Below, one piece after another: positions 9,916 through 32,000 of a stretch of 32,000 nucleotides of DNA. Every line of letters starts with the position of its first letter. Within the stretch, counting starts at the first letter, position 1. Origin of the DNA: Deinococcus radiodurans R1 = ATCC 13939 = DSM 20539. GTDB lineage: Bacteria; Deinococcota; Deinococci; Deinococcales; Deinococcaceae. Made by a program: the position numbers and the translations under genes. The notes beneath the pieces are model-generated. The model searched no databases. It saw nothing but the letters and a program-made list of their open reading frames with translations, and was not told where the DNA came from. Location of the stretch: the NCBI RefSeq assembly GCF_000008565.1, contig NC_001264.1:256346-288345 (forward strand). Direction: 5' to 3'.

Positions 9916-11247
9916 TGGTCTGAACCAATGGTTCGTGCAGTTTTAGGCGGCTTTAAGTCCGAAATCCAGCGGACTGAACGGCGAATTCGCTCATTCTTCA
10001 AAGCGAGCCGAGAGGTCCAGATTGGATAAAATGACCTGGGCCAGCAGGGCGTTATACGCCCTGCGTTTCATGTCTTCGAGACTGAACACCAGATCCTGCC
10101 CGCCACCTGCCGCTCGCAGGGCCTCCAGTCGGCAAAGATTCAGGGTCAGCAGCACCACGTTCCAATGCGCCTCGATGCCCTGCTGTGACCGCAGTTGCAC
10201 ATCCTGGCCCCCCAGGAACTGTTTGGCATCCCGGAAGATCAGTTCGATCTCAAAGCGGCTTCGATACAGCGCCATGACCTCATGAGCCGGCATGGTCACA
10301 GCGGTGCTGAACAGCACCGCGTAGCCGGTGACCTGACCCTTTTTACCAATCTGCTGAATGACGACTGCGCGCACTTCCCGCGCCCACTGCACGCTCCAGA
10401 CCACCTGCGTCCACACCCGCTCAGTCGGCCTTGCAGAGACGAGGTCGAAGCGCTGCAGGTCACTGAAGTCCACCTTACCGTCGAACTTCTTCTTTCGCCC
10501 CCGTCGTCTGGGATGCTCACCGGTGTAGAGGTCGTTGAGGTTGGCGTTGCGAGGCAATCTGGAGATAAACGGGAGACCGTGACCCGTCACGGTCTCCACG
10601 ATGGGTTCCTTCGCGTAATTCCCGTCGGCAACGACAGCAGCCAGATCAAGCTGTTGAACAGTCCGGAGATCGAGCAGCACGTCATCCAGCTGATCGGCGG
10701 CCTGTTCCAGACGAGTTGGAGCCTCAGACCCGGTCAGGGTCTGACGGACATCGACCGTCAAGGCCTGCCGGTGCTGGACATCAATGAGGGCACAACAGGA
10801 TTGCTCGATTCCGCGTTCGGTCCGCGCGGCACAGCCATTCCAGAACGAGCCGAGGTGTGCGGTGTGCTGACCGGCTTTGCGGTGAAAAGAGGCGTCGATG
10901 GCCAGAACGCACAGTGGGCTGATCAGCCCACTCTCGATTGCTGTACTGACAGTCGCCTGGTGTAACGCGCCCCACGGAATGGCCCCATCGTCACTTCGGT
11001 GCAGCCAACGACGAATCGTACTCTCCGAGCAGGCTGCATACCGGGAGAGATTCAGGGCGTTCAGCCGTCCAGGAACAGCGAGAAAAACGCTGAGCAGCAC
11101 GGTCAGGAAATTCCGCTGCGTCTTGCGCAGCGGGACCGCGCTGAGAACGTACTGTAGGATGGCCATCAGACCCATTGGAAGCGGTGATTTCACAGCTCCA
11201 TTTTCAATGGGTCTTTCCTTTTGGGCTCAAAACTGCACGAACCATTG
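9916..11247 (-). mobile_element. Intact IS4-family insertion sequence (1332 bp) with a 6-bp target-site duplication
   Basis: Terminal inverted repeats are caatggttcgtgcagtttta (9916-9935) and caaaactgcacgaaccattg (11228-11247), matching at 19 of 20 positions. The direct repeat ctgaac flanks them at 9910-9915 and 11248-11253. A single transposase ORF lies inside. Confidence 0.9.
9991..11193 (-). CDS. IS4-family DDE transposase
   Basis: 400-aa ORF with a GTG start at 11193 (alternative ATG at 11175). Candidate DDE residues are in LAIDASF, VVADGNY and the Y-x2-R-x3-E-x6-K (YREK) motif YRSRFEIELIFRDAK, which is diagnostic of IS4-family enzymes. Confidence 0.9.
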   Translation of the reverse strand: MKSPLPMGLMAILQYVLSAVPLRKTQRNFLTVLLSVFLAVPGRLNALNLSRYAACSESTIRRWLHRSDDGAIPWGALHQATVSTAIESGLISPLCVLAIDASFHRKAGQHTAHLGSFWNGCAARTERGIEQSCCALIDVQHRQALTVDVRQTLTGSEAPTRLEQAADQLDDVLLDLRTVQQLDLAAVVADGNYAKEPIVETVTGHGLPFISRLPRNANLNDLYTGEHPRRRGRKKKFDGKVDFSDLQRFDLVSARPTERVWTQVVWSVQWAREVRAVVIQQIGKKGQVTGYAVLFSTAVTMPAHEVMALYRSRFEIELIFRDAKQFLGGQDVQLRSQQGIEAHWNVVLLTLNLCRLEALRAAGGGQDLVFSLEDMKRRAYNALLAQVILSNLDLSARFEE

Positions 11248-24658: not shown

Positions 24659-26361
<1,703 letters not shown>

Positions 26362-26393
26362 GCGACTGAATTCACGACCACATTTTTCCAAAA

Positions 26394-26429
26394 GCGTCCC
26401 GGCCTCCTTGTGCCGGGCGCTTTTCTTTT
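26394..26429 (+). terminator. Intrinsic terminator after the acyl-CoA ligase gene
   Basis: gcgtcccggc (26394-26403) pairs with gccgggcgc (26412-26420), with one bulge. It is followed by ttttctttt (26421-26429). Confidence 0.7.
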
Positions 26430-26431
26430 GG

Positions 26432-26576
26432 GCTGGGAAGTTGAGCTGGGAAGGCAGACAAACCACCCAGCGTTCTGAAGAAAATCTGCTGGCTTTCTTT
26501 CTTTCTTGCCACCTCCTGCTAGAGTCGCTCTTGAGACTCTTTGTCAGGTCAGGCTCTCCCACGGCGCTGACCTGAC
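26432..26576 (+). promoter_or_regulatory. Leader/promoter region of the three-gene module, containing direct and inverted repeats (candidate RHH operator sites)
   Basis: The direct repeat gctgggaag occurs at 26432-26440 and 26445-26453. A (cttt)3 tract lies around 26494-26507. The palindrome agagtc/gactct is at 26521-26526 and 26535-26540. A perfect 10-bp inverted repeat, gtcaggtcag (26543-26552) and ctgacctgac (26567-26576), ends 6 nt before the RBS GAGGAGG (26583-26589). Confidence 0.45.
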
Positions 26577-26595
26577 GCGCCGAGGAGGTGCCGAC

Positions 26596-26802
26596 ATGTC
26601 CCCCCAGGACCCCCGTAACGTCCTGCCCGATCCCCACGAATCTGTTTCCGCCTCCAGCACCGACCCGCTCGAACCGTTCAACAGCCGCCTGCCACGCAGT
26701 TTGCAGCGGCGGCTGCGGGTGTACGCCGCGCTGCATGACCGCAAAATTCAGGACGTGCTGGGCAGCGCCCTCGACGAATACCTGCGCCAGCGGGAGGAGT
26801 AG
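26596..26802 (+). CDS. Small ribbon-helix-helix (CopG/Arc/MetJ-like) DNA-binding protein
   Basis: ATG at 26596 lies 6 nt after GAGGAGG (26583-26589); the TTG at 26506 listed in the track is less likely. The protein is 68 aa. The C-terminal 40 aa, FNSRLPRSLQRRLRVYAALHDRKIQDVLGSALDEYL, fits a strand-helix-helix pattern. Confidence 0.65.
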   Translation: MSPQDPRNVLPDPHESVSASSTDPLEPFNSRLPRSLQRRLRVYAALHDRKIQDVLGSALDEYLRQREE

Positions 26803-26805
26803 GCC

Positions 26806-28353
26806 ATGCCGCCGGACTCCCCTCTGGGCACCCTGGCCGATGTGAGCGCGCCGCCCGGCCCCGCCGCGCAGATCGTGGCTGAGGAACGCTCGGTGTTCCT
26901 GCCGACCCGCGAACTGGCGCTCGAAGTCTGGCTGGGCGAGCAGCGGCTGTCGTTTTTCATCAACGGCAACCGTGACCGCGTGCCGCACATCGAGCAGCTC
27001 ACGTCGGCAGGGGTCAGCATTCGCCTGACCGACTGGGTAGGCCGCCTGCCCTTCCGGCTGGTCTACGAGGACAGCGAAGAAGTGCAGGAAGTGGTCGTTT
27101 ACCCCGCCAAGCTCTCGCGCACGCCGGGCACCGCGTTTGCCGCCCTGGCGCGGATGGTGGCCGAGCTGCCCGAGTTGCAGCGGCGGCTGCACTTCGAGGG
27201 GGGTGACCTGCCCGAAGCGCTCAGCGGGGTGCAGACCCTGTGGACGGTGCCGCTGCGCGCCCAGGACCTGCTGGAGCTGGCCGGAGAAGCGTGGCAACTG
27301 TGGCAACTCGCCCGGCGGCAGCCGCGCCCGGCGCACAGCGCGCAGGCCGGACGCGCCCGCGAGCGCGTGGTGCTGGGCGGACAGGTGCCCGACCGGGTGG
27401 ACTGGAACCGCACGCTCGACCTGTGGGGCCGCGGCGAGTTTCCGCACCACGTCGCCCTCGACCTGCCTGCGCCGCAGCCGCCGCCCGCGCTGGCCGCCCT
27501 GCGTGAGCTGTGGCAGGCAATGGAAGAGGCCGCCGCGCAACTCGCTCCTGGCCCTGAGCGCGACGAGGTGCAGAGGCGTTTTGCCCGCGCCCTGGCGGAG
27601 TTTCCCCGGCCTGACCCGGCAAGCACGCCTGCTGCGGCCCGGCCCGGCCCCCCGGCCCGCGACCCCCTGTCGCGCCGCGCCGCGCAGCTCACCGCCGAGG
27701 TGCGTTCGCTCACCCGGCCCACCAGCGGGCTGCCGGGGGGGCGGGTCCGCATGGCCGAGCTGTACGAGTTCTGGGCGCAGATGACGCTGGCGCGGGTGTT
27801 CGGCGCCGTGCAGGGCGAGCTGTCCACCACCGCCGACGGCCTCTACACCGGCACCCTCCGCAGCGAGACCGGGCCCCTGCACAGCGACGCAGAGCCGAAC
27901 GAAACGCAGCCCTGGGCCACCGTGTCGCTCAATCCCCGGCTGATGTTCAGCGGCATCGGCTCGTCCTCGCAGACCTTGCAGCCCGACCTGCTGGCGGTGC
28001 TGGGGCAGGGCGCCGGGAGCGAAGTCGTGGTGGCCGACGTGAAATACCGACCCCTGGACCGCCTGGGCACCGACCACCAGCGCGAAATCAACGACCAGTT
28101 GCTGCGCTACATGGGCCTGACCCACGCCGCCACCGGGCTGGTGCTGTGGCCCGGCAGCGACCCCGAGGCGGACCTGGACGGCGCCGCGCCCCCCGACCCC
28201 ACGACTGACCGCCGCCTGAGCATCTTGCCGGGAGGCCGCGCCCGGCTGGTGCGGCTGCGGCTGCATCCCCTCGATCCGCCGCACCACCTTGACGACGACC
28301 TGCGCGACCTCGGGCTGCTGCCTGAGCGCCCTGAGCCCCACCCGGAGAACTGA
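26806..28353 (+). CDS. McrC/DUF2357-like protein with C-terminal PD-(D/E)xK nuclease core
   Basis: ATG at 26806 lies 8 nt after GGGAGGAG. The protein is 515 aa. The N-terminal McrC-like strand motif is VVVYPAKL. The nuclease motifs are AELYEFW (from 27757), QPD (D at 27985), VVADVKY (D-x-K at 28036-28044) and QLLRY (to 28110). Confidence 0.7.
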   Translation: MPPDSPLGTLADVSAPPGPAAQIVAEERSVFLPTRELALEVWLGEQRLSFFINGNRDRVPHIEQLTSAGVSIRLTDWVGRLPFRLVYEDSEEVQEVVVYPAKLSRTPGTAFAALARMVAELPELQRRLHFEGGDLPEALSGVQTLWTVPLRAQDLLELAGEAWQLWQLARRQPRPAHSAQAGRARERVVLGGQVPDRVDWNRTLDLWGRGEFPHHVALDLPAPQPPPALAALRELWQAMEEAAAQLAPGPERDEVQRRFARALAEFPRPDPASTPAAARPGPPARDPLSRRAAQLTAEVRSLTRPTSGLPGGRVRMAELYEFWAQMTLARVFGAVQGELSTTADGLYTGTLRSETGPLHSDAEPNETQPWATVSLNPRLMFSGIGSSSQTLQPDLLAVLGQGAGSEVVVADVKYRPLDRLGTDHQREINDQLLRYMGLTHAATGLVLWPGSDPEADLDGAAPPDPTTDRRLSILPGGRARLVRLRLHPLDPPHHLDDDLRDLGLLPERPEPHPEN

Positions 28354-28354
28354 C

Positions 28355-30325
28355 ATGAACTTCACGACTATTTTTGCCCAGTACAAGATTGCCCGCGAAA
28401 CTTTGGCCACCCTTTCTCCCGAGCAGCAAGAAGCGCTGGAGCGCGCAGCCTGGGGCGCCGACTGGTCTACCGATGCGGGCGGGGGAATGCTTTCGCCGTT
28501 GCTGCCGTTGCAGATGCCGCCGGACCCCGAGCCGGGTGGCGCGGCGCCGCCGCAGACGCGAGCGCTCGACTTTCCCTGGGCCGACCGCGCGACGGCGGGG
28601 CAAGCGCGGCAGGCGGCGCAGGCCCAACTGGTGGTGTTCGACGTGTCGAGCGCGGCGCCGCTCGGCGGAGAAATGCGGCTGATTCACTCGGCGCATTTTG
28701 CCGACATGCAGGGCGACCCGCTGATCGCCTACGCGCCCGCGCCGCACAAACTGGGCCAGCAGGTGATTCAGGCCGAGCGCGCAGACATGGGCCTCGGCCA
28801 GCTCACCCGCACCACCGTCTTCGCTTACCGCGCCCTGCCGCCGGGACAGGAGGTGCGAACGCTGGAAGCGCGGCTGGTCTTTTTGCCGCGCAAGAATCAG
28901 GTGAGCAAGGTGCGTTGGCTGGCGGCTTACGACCACCAGTTGCAGGTGCAGGGCGGCGAAACGCGGCATGTCTGTCAACTGCGAGCGGCGCTCGACCAGG
29001 AAGGCAACGGCAAGCGCAGTTTTCACGCCTCCACCCTGGGCAGCACCCAGCTCAGCCCCCTGGCGCTGCACGCCCTGAGCGCGGGCGGCACCCGGCCCTA
29101 CGCCACGCTGGAAAACGAAACCGCCCCGGCGCCCACCCCGGCGGCGCGGCACCTGCTCGACGAACTGCTCAACCCGCCGGTGCCCGCGCCCCCCAAGGTC
29201 AAGCCGCCCAAACCTCCCAAGCCGCCGAAGGCGAACCGCAAGGCCAAGCCCGCGCCCGTTGCGCCGGAACCTGTGGAAGCCGCATCTCCTCCTGAAGAAC
29301 CTGCCGCCGAGCCGCCCGCACCCGCTGCGCCAGTCTCGGAAGCCCCAGCCACCGACATTCCAGCCCCTGAAGTCCCAGCCACCGAACCTCCCGCGCCGCA
29401 GCCCGCGCCCGACCCCTGGGCCGCCATAGATGCCCGAATTGCGGTGGACGAGGACGTGCTGGCCGTGTCACGCGCCGCGCTCGAACGGCGCCGGCCTCTG
29501 CTGCTGACCGGCGCGCCCGGCACCGGCAAGACGCTGCTCGCCACGCTGCTGGCCGAGGTGCTGTGCGGCCCTGGCAACTTCACGCTGGTCACCGCCGACG
29601 CCCGCTGGACGAGCAGCGAGGTGCTCGGCGGCCTGCGGGTCATGCCCGGCGAGGGCCTGCGCTACAGCTTCGTGCCGGGGGTGGTCACGCGGGCGGCGCA
29701 GCGGCACCGCGAAAGTATGCAGGCGACCGGGCGGCCCCACGCCCTCATCATCGACGAATTCAACCGGGCGCATCAGGACGAGGCGTTCGGGCGGCTGCTC
29801 ACGCTGCTCGACCCCGCCTACCGTTCCCAGATGCCGTTGGTGGGCGTGCAGGACGGTGCCCCCGAGGACGTGTTTTTGCCCGCCGACTTCGTGCTCATCG
29901 CCACCATGAACGACGCCGACGTGGGGCGGCTGCATGAAATCGGCTCGGCCTTGCAGCGCCGCTTCGTGACGGTGCCGGTGGGGGTGCCTGCCGGGGAGCG
30001 CGCCTTTCTGGAACGGAGCTGGGCGCACCTGCCCGCCGGAACACTGGGGACGCTCTACGACTTCGTGGGCAGCGGCGACCCTGTCAGCGACCGTGAGGCC
30101 GGGCGACTGCGCGGGTTCGTGACAGTGGGGACCTTTTTCATGGAAGAGGTGCTGGGCATGGCGACCGATCTGGGCCTCGACCGGGCGCTGCGCAGTCAGG
30201 TGGCGCCGCAGCTCGGCAGCCTGGGCCGCAGCGACCTCGCCGCACTCGAAGCCCGCGCCCGGCAGACCGGCCTCCCCAAACTCGCCGCGCAACTGGCGAC
30301 GGCAGGGCAGCAAGCTCCGTTCTGA
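28355..30325 (+). CDS. McrB-like AAA+ GTPase with an unrecognised N-terminal domain and a Pro/Ala-rich linker
   Basis: ATG at 28355 lies 1 nt after the upstream TGA and is preceded by GGAG. Motifs are Walker A GAPGTGKT (29510-29533), Walker B LIIDEFNRA (D at 29753), the McrB-type signature TMNDAD (NxxD, N at 29909) and ALQRRF (around 29957). Confidence 0.8.
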   Translation: MNFTTIFAQYKIARETLATLSPEQQEALERAAWGADWSTDAGGGMLSPLLPLQMPPDPEPGGAAPPQTRALDFPWADRATAGQARQAAQAQLVVFDVSSAAPLGGEMRLIHSAHFADMQGDPLIAYAPAPHKLGQQVIQAERADMGLGQLTRTTVFAYRALPPGQEVRTLEARLVFLPRKNQVSKVRWLAAYDHQLQVQGGETRHVCQLRAALDQEGNGKRSFHASTLGSTQLSPLALHALSAGGTRPYATLENETAPAPTPAARHLLDELLNPPVPAPPKVKPPKPPKPPKANRKAKPAPVAPEPVEAASPPEEPAAEPPAPAAPVSEAPATDIPAPEVPATEPPAPQPAPDPWAAIDARIAVDEDVLAVSRAALERRRPLLLTGAPGTGKTLLATLLAEVLCGPGNFTLVTADARWTSSEVLGGLRVMPGEGLRYSFVPGVVTRAAQRHRESMQATGRPHALIIDEFNRAHQDEAFGRLLTLLDPAYRSQMPLVGVQDGAPEDVFLPADFVLIATMNDADVGRLHEIGSALQRRFVTVPVGVPAGERAFLERSWAHLPAGTLGTLYDFVGSGDPVSDREAGRLRGFVTVGTFFMEEVLGMATDLGLDRALRSQVAPQLGSLGRSDLAALEARARQTGLPKLAAQLATAGQQAPF

Positions 30326-31016: not shown

Positions 31017-32000
31017 TTACCCTTCCCGGTCCAGCAATCGCCACGCCGTCACGTCGAGCAGGCCGCGCGGCGTCAGCTTGAGCGCCGGAATCACGCTCAG
31101 GCCGAGAAAACTCAGGGTGGTGACGGGATAGGGCAAGGTGCAGCCCAGCAAGCGCGCCGCCGCCGTCACCCGGCCCAGGGCAGCGGCGGCCTCGGCCGGA
31201 GGCTGGTCGGTCATCAGACCCGCGTAGGGCAGGGGCAACTGCTCGCGGACCTCGCCGTCCACGACCAGGACGATGCCGCCGCCGAGCCGTTCGAGCGCCC
31301 GACCCGCCGCGCGCAGGTCCGCGTCGCTGCCGCCGAGCAGGGCCACCTGATGCGCGTCGTGCAGAATGCTGATGCCCAGGGTGCCGCCGCGCAGGCCGCT
31401 GCCCAACGTCCAGCAGCTCGACCACTCGCCGCGCCCGTAGCGGTCGGCGACGACCAGCCGGGCGTCTCCGCTGCCCGGCGCCGCACGCCCGGTGACGATC
31501 TGGTCGGGAAACATCTGGAGCGTGGGCCAGTGCGCGGGCGGATCGAAGGTGGCCCCGTCCCAGCCGGGCCCGAGGTCGACGCCGCCACCGGGCAGGGGGG
31601 GCGTCTCGCCGCCGGGCCGCGCTTCCTCGCCGCCCACGAAGGTTTCCAGCACCCCGAAGTGTTGCAAGTCGCGCAGCAGCACGAAGTCGGCGTGATACCC
31701 AGGGGCGATCACCCCGAGGTCGTGCAGGCCCCAGTATTTCTCGATACCGCGCGCCCGCTGCGCTTCCCGCACGTCCTGCACGGTCTGCGCGACCACCGGA
31801 ATAAAGCGCAGGGTGAGCGACACGGCGAGGCTCACCCGCGCCGGATTGACCCCCAGCCGGGCCAGCGGCAGGGCGGCCCGTTCCAGTCCGGCCAGCAGCG
31901 CCGAAGTGCGTGTGGTGAGCGTGACCAGCGAGGCGAGCAGAATCATCACCCCGAAGCGCAGGGCGGTGACGACAGCGGTTTCCCAGTTCGTCAGCAGCCC
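31017..32000 (-). pseudogene. Chimeric ORF: an EcfT/CbiQ-type transporter segment fused in frame to the C-terminal domain of adenine deaminase (5' end outside the window)
   Basis: The reading frame is open to the window edge. The upstream part, ...TNWETAVVTALRFGVMILLASLVTLTTRTSALLAGLERAALPLARLGVNPARVSLAVSLTLRFIPVVAQTVQDVREAQRARG, is EcfT/CbiQ-like. From about 31740 downstream, GVIAPGYHADFVLLRDL... plus about 230 aa resembles the end of the amidohydrolase fold and the C-terminal domain of adenine deaminase. Confidence 0.55.

Follow-up and report, generated by a model that had tools for sequence, protein, structure and literature searches.

A probable McrBC-type restriction module with a highly diverged McrC partner in Deinococcus radiodurans and other Deinococcaceae

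Chromosome II of Deinococcus radiodurans R1 carries a three-gene operon, here called g1, g2, and g3, that probably encodes a McrBC-type, nucleoside triphosphate (NTP)-driven, Type IV-like restriction module specific to the Deinococcaceae. We examined the operon within a window of 32,000 nucleotides (NC_001264.1, positions 256,346 to 288,345 of the forward strand), which shares ~100% identity with "plasmid 3" (412 kb) of isolate DRR11. Two of the genes form the core of the module: g3 encodes a McrB-type motor preceded by an N-terminal domain, and g2 encodes a McrC-like protein. The operon is led by g1, which encodes a small ribbon-helix-helix (RHH) protein. The module represents a well-known DNA restriction system in a lineage-specific version and is not a new kind of system. 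What is new are its cryptic McrC partner, a confidently folded orphan N-terminal domain on a proline-rich tether, and an RHH gene that is specific to one subclade.

By homology with the McrBC complexes of Escherichia coli and Thermococcus gammatolerans, we infer how such a module would operate. The C-terminal AAA+ domain of g3 would assemble into a hexameric ring, and one g2 molecule would insert its middle "finger" into the pore, stimulating the hydrolysis of NTP (presumably GTP) through a repositioned MNDAD loop. The N-terminal domains of g3, carried on long Pro-rich tethers, would recognize some feature of foreign DNA, probably a modification or a structure, and the PD-(D/E)xK domain of g2 would then cut the DNA.

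The motor of g3 carries the full signature of the McrB clade that an earlier note on this DNA had ascribed to it, with GAPGTGKT, IIDEFNR, TMNDAD, and ALQRRF all present and conserved. For g3, 39 full-length homologs are known, and conserved residues were counted in 20 homologs each of g2 and g3. In those 20 g3 homologs, the Gly, Lys, and Thr positions of Walker A, the D-E-F-N-R stretch, N519, D522, R535, R536, and F537 are invariant. All McrB homologs are marked by an MNxxD loop that stands in for sensor I (PMC7680126, PMC11090510). Furthermore, when a profile of the 20 homologs was compared with sequences in the Protein Data Bank (PDB), the best matches were the McrB proteins of E. coli (EcMcrB, E 4.4e-17) and T. 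gammatolerans (TgMcrB, E 1.2e-12), followed by Midasin (E 1.4e-9), a margin over the next AAA+ protein of ~7 orders of magnitude for the former and 3 for the latter. Alignment of g3 to EcMcrB with hhalign gave a probability of 98.8% over 229 columns, and the top NCBIfam match of g3 is McrB. The NCBIfam equivalog of E. coli McrB (PRK11331) scored 32.7 bits, far under its cut-off of 637. On these sequence comparisons, g3 is a member of the McrB family and not an ortholog of EcMcrB.

One claim about the motor had to be given up. The NxxD element had been associated with GTP specificity, but Niu et al. 2020 (PMC7680126) make it a catalytic consensus loop that is repositioned by McrC. Recognition of guanine falls to elements that precede the AAA+ core and differ between McrB homologs (PMC7680126). 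Because these guanine-reading elements lie outside the core, use of GTP by g3 is presumed from its membership in the family.

The case for g2 draws on its predicted fold, its catalytic motif, and a remote sequence bridge, all of which point to a highly diverged McrC. When the AlphaFold2 (AF2) model of g2 (predicted local distance difference test score [pLDDT] 80) was searched against the PDB with Foldseek, the sole match below E 1e-3 was T. gammatolerans McrC (TgMcrC; 6ut5_G, E 4.3e-5, prob 0.99, 347 columns), and the alignment covered the full chain. The global template modeling (TM) scores between the two are low (0.15 / 0.22) because their domain orientations differ. Among the lower-ranking Foldseek matches were PD-(D/E)xK enzymes, for example, Card1/Can2, BamHI, MunI, and SgrAI. 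The predicted layout of g2 mirrors the three-part plan of TgMcrC (PDB 6ut5 and related), in which a scaffold barrel, a finger, and a nuclease follow one another (PMC7680126), at a sequence identity of ~12%.

The catalytic residues of g2 tell a similar story. The motifs quoted for it earlier (VYPAKL, ELYEFW, PD…ADVK, and QLLRY) are all present in the translation; P393, D394, K413, E321, Q431, and Y435 are invariant in the 20 homologs, and D411 and V412 are kept in at least 90% of them. In an hhalign comparison, this region lies in register with residues 242-307 of E. coli McrC (EcMcrC), the stretch with the DAK motif; the overall E value was 0.16, so that the alignment of the motif is informative while the score alone is not significant. 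HMMER searches with the g2 profile also reached remote relatives that pass the Pfam McrBC threshold (P0101 at 24.3 bits), and hhalign of the g2 family against such remote Pfam-McrBC-positive proteins gave a probability of 98.7%. Among the 20 homologs themselves, Pfam McrBC appears weakly in 12 (best E 0.002), and two UniRef entries for g2 homologs are named DUF2357 or 5-methylcytosine-restriction. The g2 family profile, searched against PDB sequences, returned a spurious Csm1 match only. One remote nuclease relative, P0106, was set aside as evidence from gene context, since it has no McrB neighbor and supports homology of the nuclease domain only.

A possible point of contact between the two proteins lies in the middle region of g2. 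Two arginines, R187 and R197, are invariant there in the 20 homologs, within the block RxxxxGxVPDRVDW. In the McrC proteins of T. gammatolerans and E. coli, the residue of the finger that touches the NxxD loop is an arginine or a lysine, namely, R263 in TgMcrC and K157 in EcMcrC. The strongly conserved block of g2 from R187 to H215 is the obvious candidate for a ring-contact surface and may carry the Arg/Lys finger.

The two genes are found together in almost all loci examined. In 15 of the 16 fetched loci, as well as in Deinobacterium chartae, g2 is followed by g3, adjacent or overlapping, and the order of C then B, noted earlier for this operon, is constant across the family. All named homologs of g2 and g3 come from Deinococcus or Deinobacterium (Deinococcaceae). 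Among 1.84 billion cluster representatives searched with the g2 profile in HMMER, 35 proteins were found at E<=1e-3, 26 of them at E<=1e-10. Likewise, g2 is carried by just 5 of the 72,556 plasmid records searched, each of them a Deinococcus megaplasmid, and several other Deinococcus megaplasmids carry the upstream ligase gene but not the module.

The part of g3 most likely to set specificity is also the least familiar. The N-terminal domain is modeled with high confidence (Table 1), and it is present in every family member under purifying selection (dN/dS 0.14-0.22). Foldseek gave a best E of 0.02, at low probability, against the PDB and no match against BFVD, and the solved N-terminal domains of McrB proteins were not among its matches. 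There was likewise no match to Pfam, to PDB sequences in a profile search, or to phages by tblastn. The earlier description of this region as unrecognizable and followed by a Pro-rich linker thus stands. Mean pairwise identity is 38% for the N-terminal domain versus 71% for the AAA+ core, and such faster divergence than in the motor is, at the level of sequence, as expected for a specificity domain. We presume that the domain is the target-recognition module, the recognition of DNA being an assumption.

The tether that follows begins with a basic stretch, PPKVKPPKPPKPPKANRKAKP (PPKVKPPKPPKPPK), and measures 63 to 115 aa, depending on the homolog. One metagenomic homolog of g3, P0077 (1063 aa), has in place of the Pro-rich linker an insert of ~440 aa without a Pfam match, and this marks the tether as a hotspot for insertions. 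Its N-terminal domain and motor share 24% and 50% identity, respectively, with those of g3.

The structure of the operon was described accurately in the earlier note. All three genes are co-directional, with gaps of 3 nt between g1 and g2 and 1 nt between g2 and g3, and a Shine-Dalgarno-like GGAGG or GGAG lies 7-8 nt 5' of each of the three ATGs; together they form a genuine three-gene operon. Upstream, the long-chain-fatty-acid-CoA ligase gene ends in its own intrinsic terminator, and downstream an FmdE gene runs convergent with g3, 18 nt past its end, so that g1-g2-g3 is a self-contained unit. An alternative TTG start for g3 at 28289 would yield a 678-aa open reading frame (ORF; 28289-30325), which corresponds to the older annotation of the gene. 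In RefSeq, g3 is a "McrB family protein," and g1 and g2 are hypothetical. Compared with D. wulumuqiensis and D. sp. VB343, dN/dS is 0.28-0.30 for g1, 0.34-0.39 for g2, and 0.17-0.21 for g3. These values, well below 1, together with confident AlphaFold models, indicate that the three are real genes and not artefacts of high GC content. A 1034-aa antisense ORF (25306-28410, minus strand) that runs across the ligase gene, g1, and g2 was rejected as just such an artefact. In both D. radiodurans and D. wulumuqiensis, the operon and the genes around it include no methyltransferase, in line with a Type IV-style system.

Table 1. Positions of the operon, its domains and motifs, and adjoining elements in the 32,000-nt window
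Feature	Coordinates	Strand	Size or residues	Details
Intrinsic terminator, upstream long-chain-fatty-acid-CoA ligase gene	26398-26417	+		6 G-C pairs, then T-run
5' region with presumed promoter	26420-26595	+		between ligase terminator and g1
g1	26596 (ATG) to 26802 (TAG)	+	68 aa	RHH protein
g2	26806 (ATG) to 28353 (TGA)	+	515 aa	McrC-like protein
g2 N-terminal beta-rich scaffold		+	~residues 20-105	TDWVGRL, VYPAKL
g2 middle "finger-like" helical/beta region		+	~residues 106-310	invariant block R187…GxVPDRVDW…W207…H215
g2 C-terminal PD-(D/E)xK nuclease		+	~residues 311-450	
g2 G7 homopolymer	27735-27741	+		G6 in DRR11, where g2 is annotated as two coding sequences
g2 catalytic core	27982-28044	+		P393-D394 … D411-V412-K413; E321 (ELYEFW) before, Q431xxxY435 after
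g3	28355 (ATG) to 30325 (stop)	+	656 aa	McrB-type motor + N-terminal domain
g3 N-terminal domain	28355-29170	+	residues 1-272	alpha/beta; AF2 pLDDT 92.7, predicted TM score 0.89
g3 Pro-rich linker	29171-29404	+	~residues 273-350	residues 273-362 are 36% Pro
g3 AAA+ NTPase domain and lid	29405-30325	+		Pfam AAA_5, 5.7e-30 (sole, generic Pfam match)
g3 Walker A, GAPGTGKT	29510-29533	+	residues 386-393	
g3 Walker B, IIDEFNR	29747-29767	+	residues 465-471	
g3 consensus loop, MNDAD (position given for N519-D522)	29909-29920	+	N519-D522	aligns with EcMcrB MNTAD
g3 trans-arginine pair (sensor II / arginine finger)		+	R535-R536	in ALQRRF; aligns with EcMcrB ALRRRF

The first gene of the operon is more narrowly distributed in the family. 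Residues 1-30 of g1 are acidic and apparently unstructured, and residues 31-68 make up the RHH domain, which matches Pfam 56B_RHH (CopG/ORF56-like) at E 9e-7 and 29.2 bits (cut-off 27.2); Antitox_RHH (E 0.007) and a RelB-like antitoxin family (E 0.056) match more weakly. Homologs of g1 accompany the pair in only 5 of ~18 loci (L001, L002, L006, L007, and L019), and the carriers are the closest subclade, comprising D. radiodurans, D. wulumuqiensis, VB343, VB142, and one metagenome-assembled genome. The RHH gene is a subclade-specific add-on and not a core part of the module. It does lead the operon in the D. radiodurans subclade, as had been noted, but it cannot define the module, most loci being without it.

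In the D. radiodurans subclade, g1 most likely autoregulates transcription by repressing the operon's promoter. It would act much like the controllers that, in mobile restriction systems, postpone production of the nuclease when a new host is entered. A perfect inverted repeat, GTCAGGTCAG-N14-CTGACCTGAC, at 26543-26576, ~20 nt before the ATG of g1, is a candidate RHH operator, and its identification as the operator of g1 is speculative. Between D. wulumuqiensis and D. radiodurans, the only block common to the 5' regions of g1 is TTTCTTTCTT…CTA(G/C)AGTCG, and no match to a sigma-70 consensus was found in this region. In addition, a tandem 13-nt direct repeat (TTGGGCTGGGAAG / TTGAGCTGGGAAG) occupies 26428-26453, between the ligase terminator and the promoter region of g1.

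The surroundings of the module change from genome to genome. In D. wulumuqiensis, the operon is intact and syntenic, at the same position as in D. radiodurans. Elsewhere, the pair adjoins ParA/ParB genes, a replication gene, and insertion sequence (IS) elements (D. sp. QL22 and D. cavernae), lies immediately downstream of a CRISPR array (D. murrayi), follows a cold-shock-domain (CSD) gene by 1 nt (D. antarcticus), or is found with BrxC/BrxD-like ATPase, UvrD, and AddAB-like genes (Deinobacterium). Patchy distribution and changing contexts are the behavior of an accessory, laterally moving module, and in this respect the earlier suggestion of an accessory distribution was well founded. A comparison with empty sites that was anchored on the ligase gene proved uninformative, synteny being gone in D. 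gobiensis and D. sp. AJ005.

Some of these neighborhoods have features of their own. In D. murrayi, the array (L013 6871-7812, equivalent to L018 7699-8769) consists of ~15 units with a 29-nt repeat, GTTTTCCCCACGGGTGTGGGGATGGTCCG, and a 61-nt period, and it was called as the gene for a 356-aa protein in the source assembly; a gene for a 1761-aa protein with RNase_T and DEAD-helicase domains comes after the g2-g3 pair. In D. antarcticus, the neighbor is a 455-aa CSD protein (L017 2588-3955; Pfam CSD 2.7e-8), whose gene stands where the RHH gene would be, as the third member of the operon. It brings to mind the fusions to CSDs in CoCoNuT systems, even though this motor is of the NxxD type. In Deinobacterium chartae (L022 4009-17440), the pair is flanked by a BrxC/BrxD-family ATPase, a UvrD-like helicase, and an AddAB-like nuclease-helicase pair, and these surroundings may represent a defense-type neighborhood.

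Compared with EcoKMcrBC of E. coli K-12, the canonical Type IV modification-dependent system, the D. radiodurans module shares the essentials of an AAA+ NTPase with an N-terminal target domain and a PD-(D/E)xK partner, encoded by adjacent, translationally coupled genes with no cognate methyltransferase. The differences lie in how these parts are arranged and elaborated. The order of the genes is C then B, whereas the McrB gene is upstream "in most cases" (PMC11090510). The N-terminal domain of g3 is ~270 aa with an unrecognized fold, in place of the DUF3578-type 5-methylcytosine reader of EcoKMcrBC, and it is attached by a Pro-rich tether. Moreover, the N-terminal beta scaffold of g2 has no counterpart in EcMcrC. 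With the T. gammatolerans system, g2 shares the three-part layout of TgMcrC, and TgMcrB is the second-best PDB sequence match of the g3 motor, but the fold of its N-terminal domain differs. A 2024 census of ~34,000 McrBC systems documented very large diversity of N-terminal domains (PMC11090510). Set against such diversity and a usual gene order that has exceptions, the novel N-terminal domain and the inverted order of the module are variations on a known theme.

Other relatives of McrBC fit less well. CoCoNuT systems also pair McrB-like and McrC-like proteins with unusual added domains, but they are of the NxD type and predicted to target RNA. We rejected g2-g3 as a CoCoNuT, since g3 has NxxD (NDAD) rather than NxD and the pair has no long coiled coils (in AF2 models), tandem nucleases, or helicase partners (PMC11090510). 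The accessible portion of the supplements to the CoCoNuT paper mentions D. geothermalis but not the g2-g3 family. Systems of the LlaJI / LlaI / BsuMI type likewise combine a McrB-like motor and a McrC-like nuclease in a noncanonical arrangement of more than two genes. They include methyltransferases and act at unmodified specific sites via B3-like domains (PMC12707154), whereas the D. radiodurans module has no methyltransferase, and its third gene encodes an RHH protein.

Half of this module was already on record. Previous work has noted two mcrBC homologs in D. radiodurans R1 with differing McrB N-terminal regions (Fukuda et al. 2008, PMC2614495), and Table S1 of that study lists a 678-aa McrB homolog, NP_285589.1, with its McrC as "ND." The length of NP_285589.1 is exactly that of g3 when read from the TTG start (28289-30325). 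The other system, the mcrBC of megaplasmid MP1 (969-aa McrB, NP_051672.1), is of the same type and belongs to the same genome, but there the McrC is recognized. In the SLICER study (PMC10085245), the restriction-modification systems of R1, taken from REBASE, were ORF14075, Mrr, ORF15360, Mrr2, ORF2230, and MP1 mcrBC, a list of six from which the chromosome II module is absent. The module had been put forward as possibly undescribed. That is too much for g3, which was listed in 2008 and is named in RefSeq; it remains apt for the McrC partner and the N-terminal domain, which had gone unrecognized.

Several observations weigh against reading the locus as an active restriction module. The Pfam McrBC family (PF10117) matches g2 at E 0.056 and 12.8 bits, below its cut-off of 23.9, and Pfam DUF2357 has no match in g2 at E<=1 or in its 20 homologs at E<=0.1. 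Of the McrC/DUF2357 pattern proposed for g2, then, the McrC-like fold and catalytic motif hold and the link to DUF2357 does not. With PADLOC, g1 and g2 drew no match, and g3 gave nothing beyond P-loop noise. At pI 6.2, the N-terminal domain of g3 is mildly acidic, and it has no detectable DNA-binding fold; the nucleotide preference of the motor is not readable from its sequence (per PMC7680126). The inverted repeat at 26543-26576 is not kept in D. wulumuqiensis, and we accordingly discarded the idea of a conserved operator for the RHH protein. The neighbors in D. radiodurans itself are ordinary metabolic genes with no defense genes among them, so that of the "defense islet" suggested earlier, a single inserted module survives, and a multisystem island does not. 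Finally, the split of g2 in DRR11 could reflect inactivation or an assembly error.

With these points in mind, alternative explanations deserve consideration. The same McrB/McrC machine could serve the host, either by processing damaged or aberrant DNA or as an addiction system for a megaplasmid or secondary chromosome. E. coli McrBC can act in post-segregational-type killing (PMC2614495), and the family is confined to the Deinococcaceae, sits on chromosome II or megaplasmids, adjoins ParA/ParB and a replication gene in D. sp. QL22 and D. cavernae, and has an N-terminal domain unlike any solved modification reader. We nonetheless consider a host function unlikely. Patchiness within Deinococcus counts against a core role in repair, the ParAB neighbors occur in 2 of ~18 loci only while other loci lie beside a CRISPR array or BrxC/D, and a literature search on the presumed locus tags DR_A0264-0267 found nothing relevant. 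It is also conceivable, if very improbable, that the locus is a toxin-antitoxin-like cassette in which g1 is an antitoxin against the g2 nuclease and g3 an accessory ATPase. The layout, with a leading RHH gene closely coupled to its successor, is typical of type II toxin-antitoxin operons, and g1 has weak matches to antitoxin families. Yet most family members lack the RHH gene while g2 and g3 always occur together, the best RHH match is to the CopG/ORF56-like 56B_RHH, and g2, a 515-aa multidomain McrC-like protein, is no known toxin of such systems.

A further alternative is that the module is a decaying, nonfunctional relic in D. radiodurans. The difference between G6 and G7 that splits g2 in DRR11 would be in keeping with decay, as would the rearranged remnants nearby (DR_A0268/0269; PMC11219805) and an IS element elsewhere in the window. 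Still, none of the three ORFs is interrupted in the window, the catalytic residues are invariant, dN/dS is 0.17-0.39, and D. wulumuqiensis has the operon intact at the syntenic position, all of which leave little room for a relic. The evidence is thus most consistent with a McrBC-type, Type IV-like restriction module. A stronger version of that reading would make the N-terminal domain of g3 a new nucleic-acid-recognition fold, directed at a modification or DNA structure that characterized Type IV enzymes do not read, and the module an active seventh restriction barrier of R1; this version is doubtful.

These results have implications for both the biology and the manipulation of Deinococcus. 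They supply the missing McrC of the McrB homolog listed in 2008, which turns out to be very divergent and encoded upstream of mcrB. The failure of PADLOC to detect g2 exposes a blind spot, in that defense finders based on hidden Markov models miss McrC partners that have diverged strongly. Modification-dependent enzymes are useful as epigenomic reagents. Should the N-terminal domain of g3 prove to read DNA, the Type IV toolbox would gain a new specificity module. In restriction-minus D. radiodurans work (PMC10085245), six systems were targeted with little gain in transformation, and the chromosome II module is a concrete candidate for a further knockout.

Differences between strains and the wider window provide some remaining detail. 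Over 7.7 kb, the window differs from DRR11 by three single-base indels (25373; 27735-27741; 31595), which stem from errors in sequencing homopolymers or else from true strain or phase variation. The indel at 25373 leaves the ligase gene frameshifted in the window and intact in DRR11, so that the upstream "frameshifted gene" of the earlier note is frameshifted here, but by a single-base difference only. The one at 31595 falls in a G-run of an adenine-deaminase-like remnant. The adenine-deaminase-like ORF, DR_A0268 (window 31017-31949), corresponds to what the earlier note called a chimeric gene remnant; it is described as a chimera that recombination with DR_A0270 and a segment of chromosome I produced, and it is reported to be absent from strain ATCC 13939K (PMC11219805). 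The position of a 400-aa ORF on the minus strand (9991-11193) is that of the transposase of the IS4-like ISDra7 in the DRR11 annotation, and this ISDra7-type ORF lies ~15 kb from the module rather than adjacent to it.

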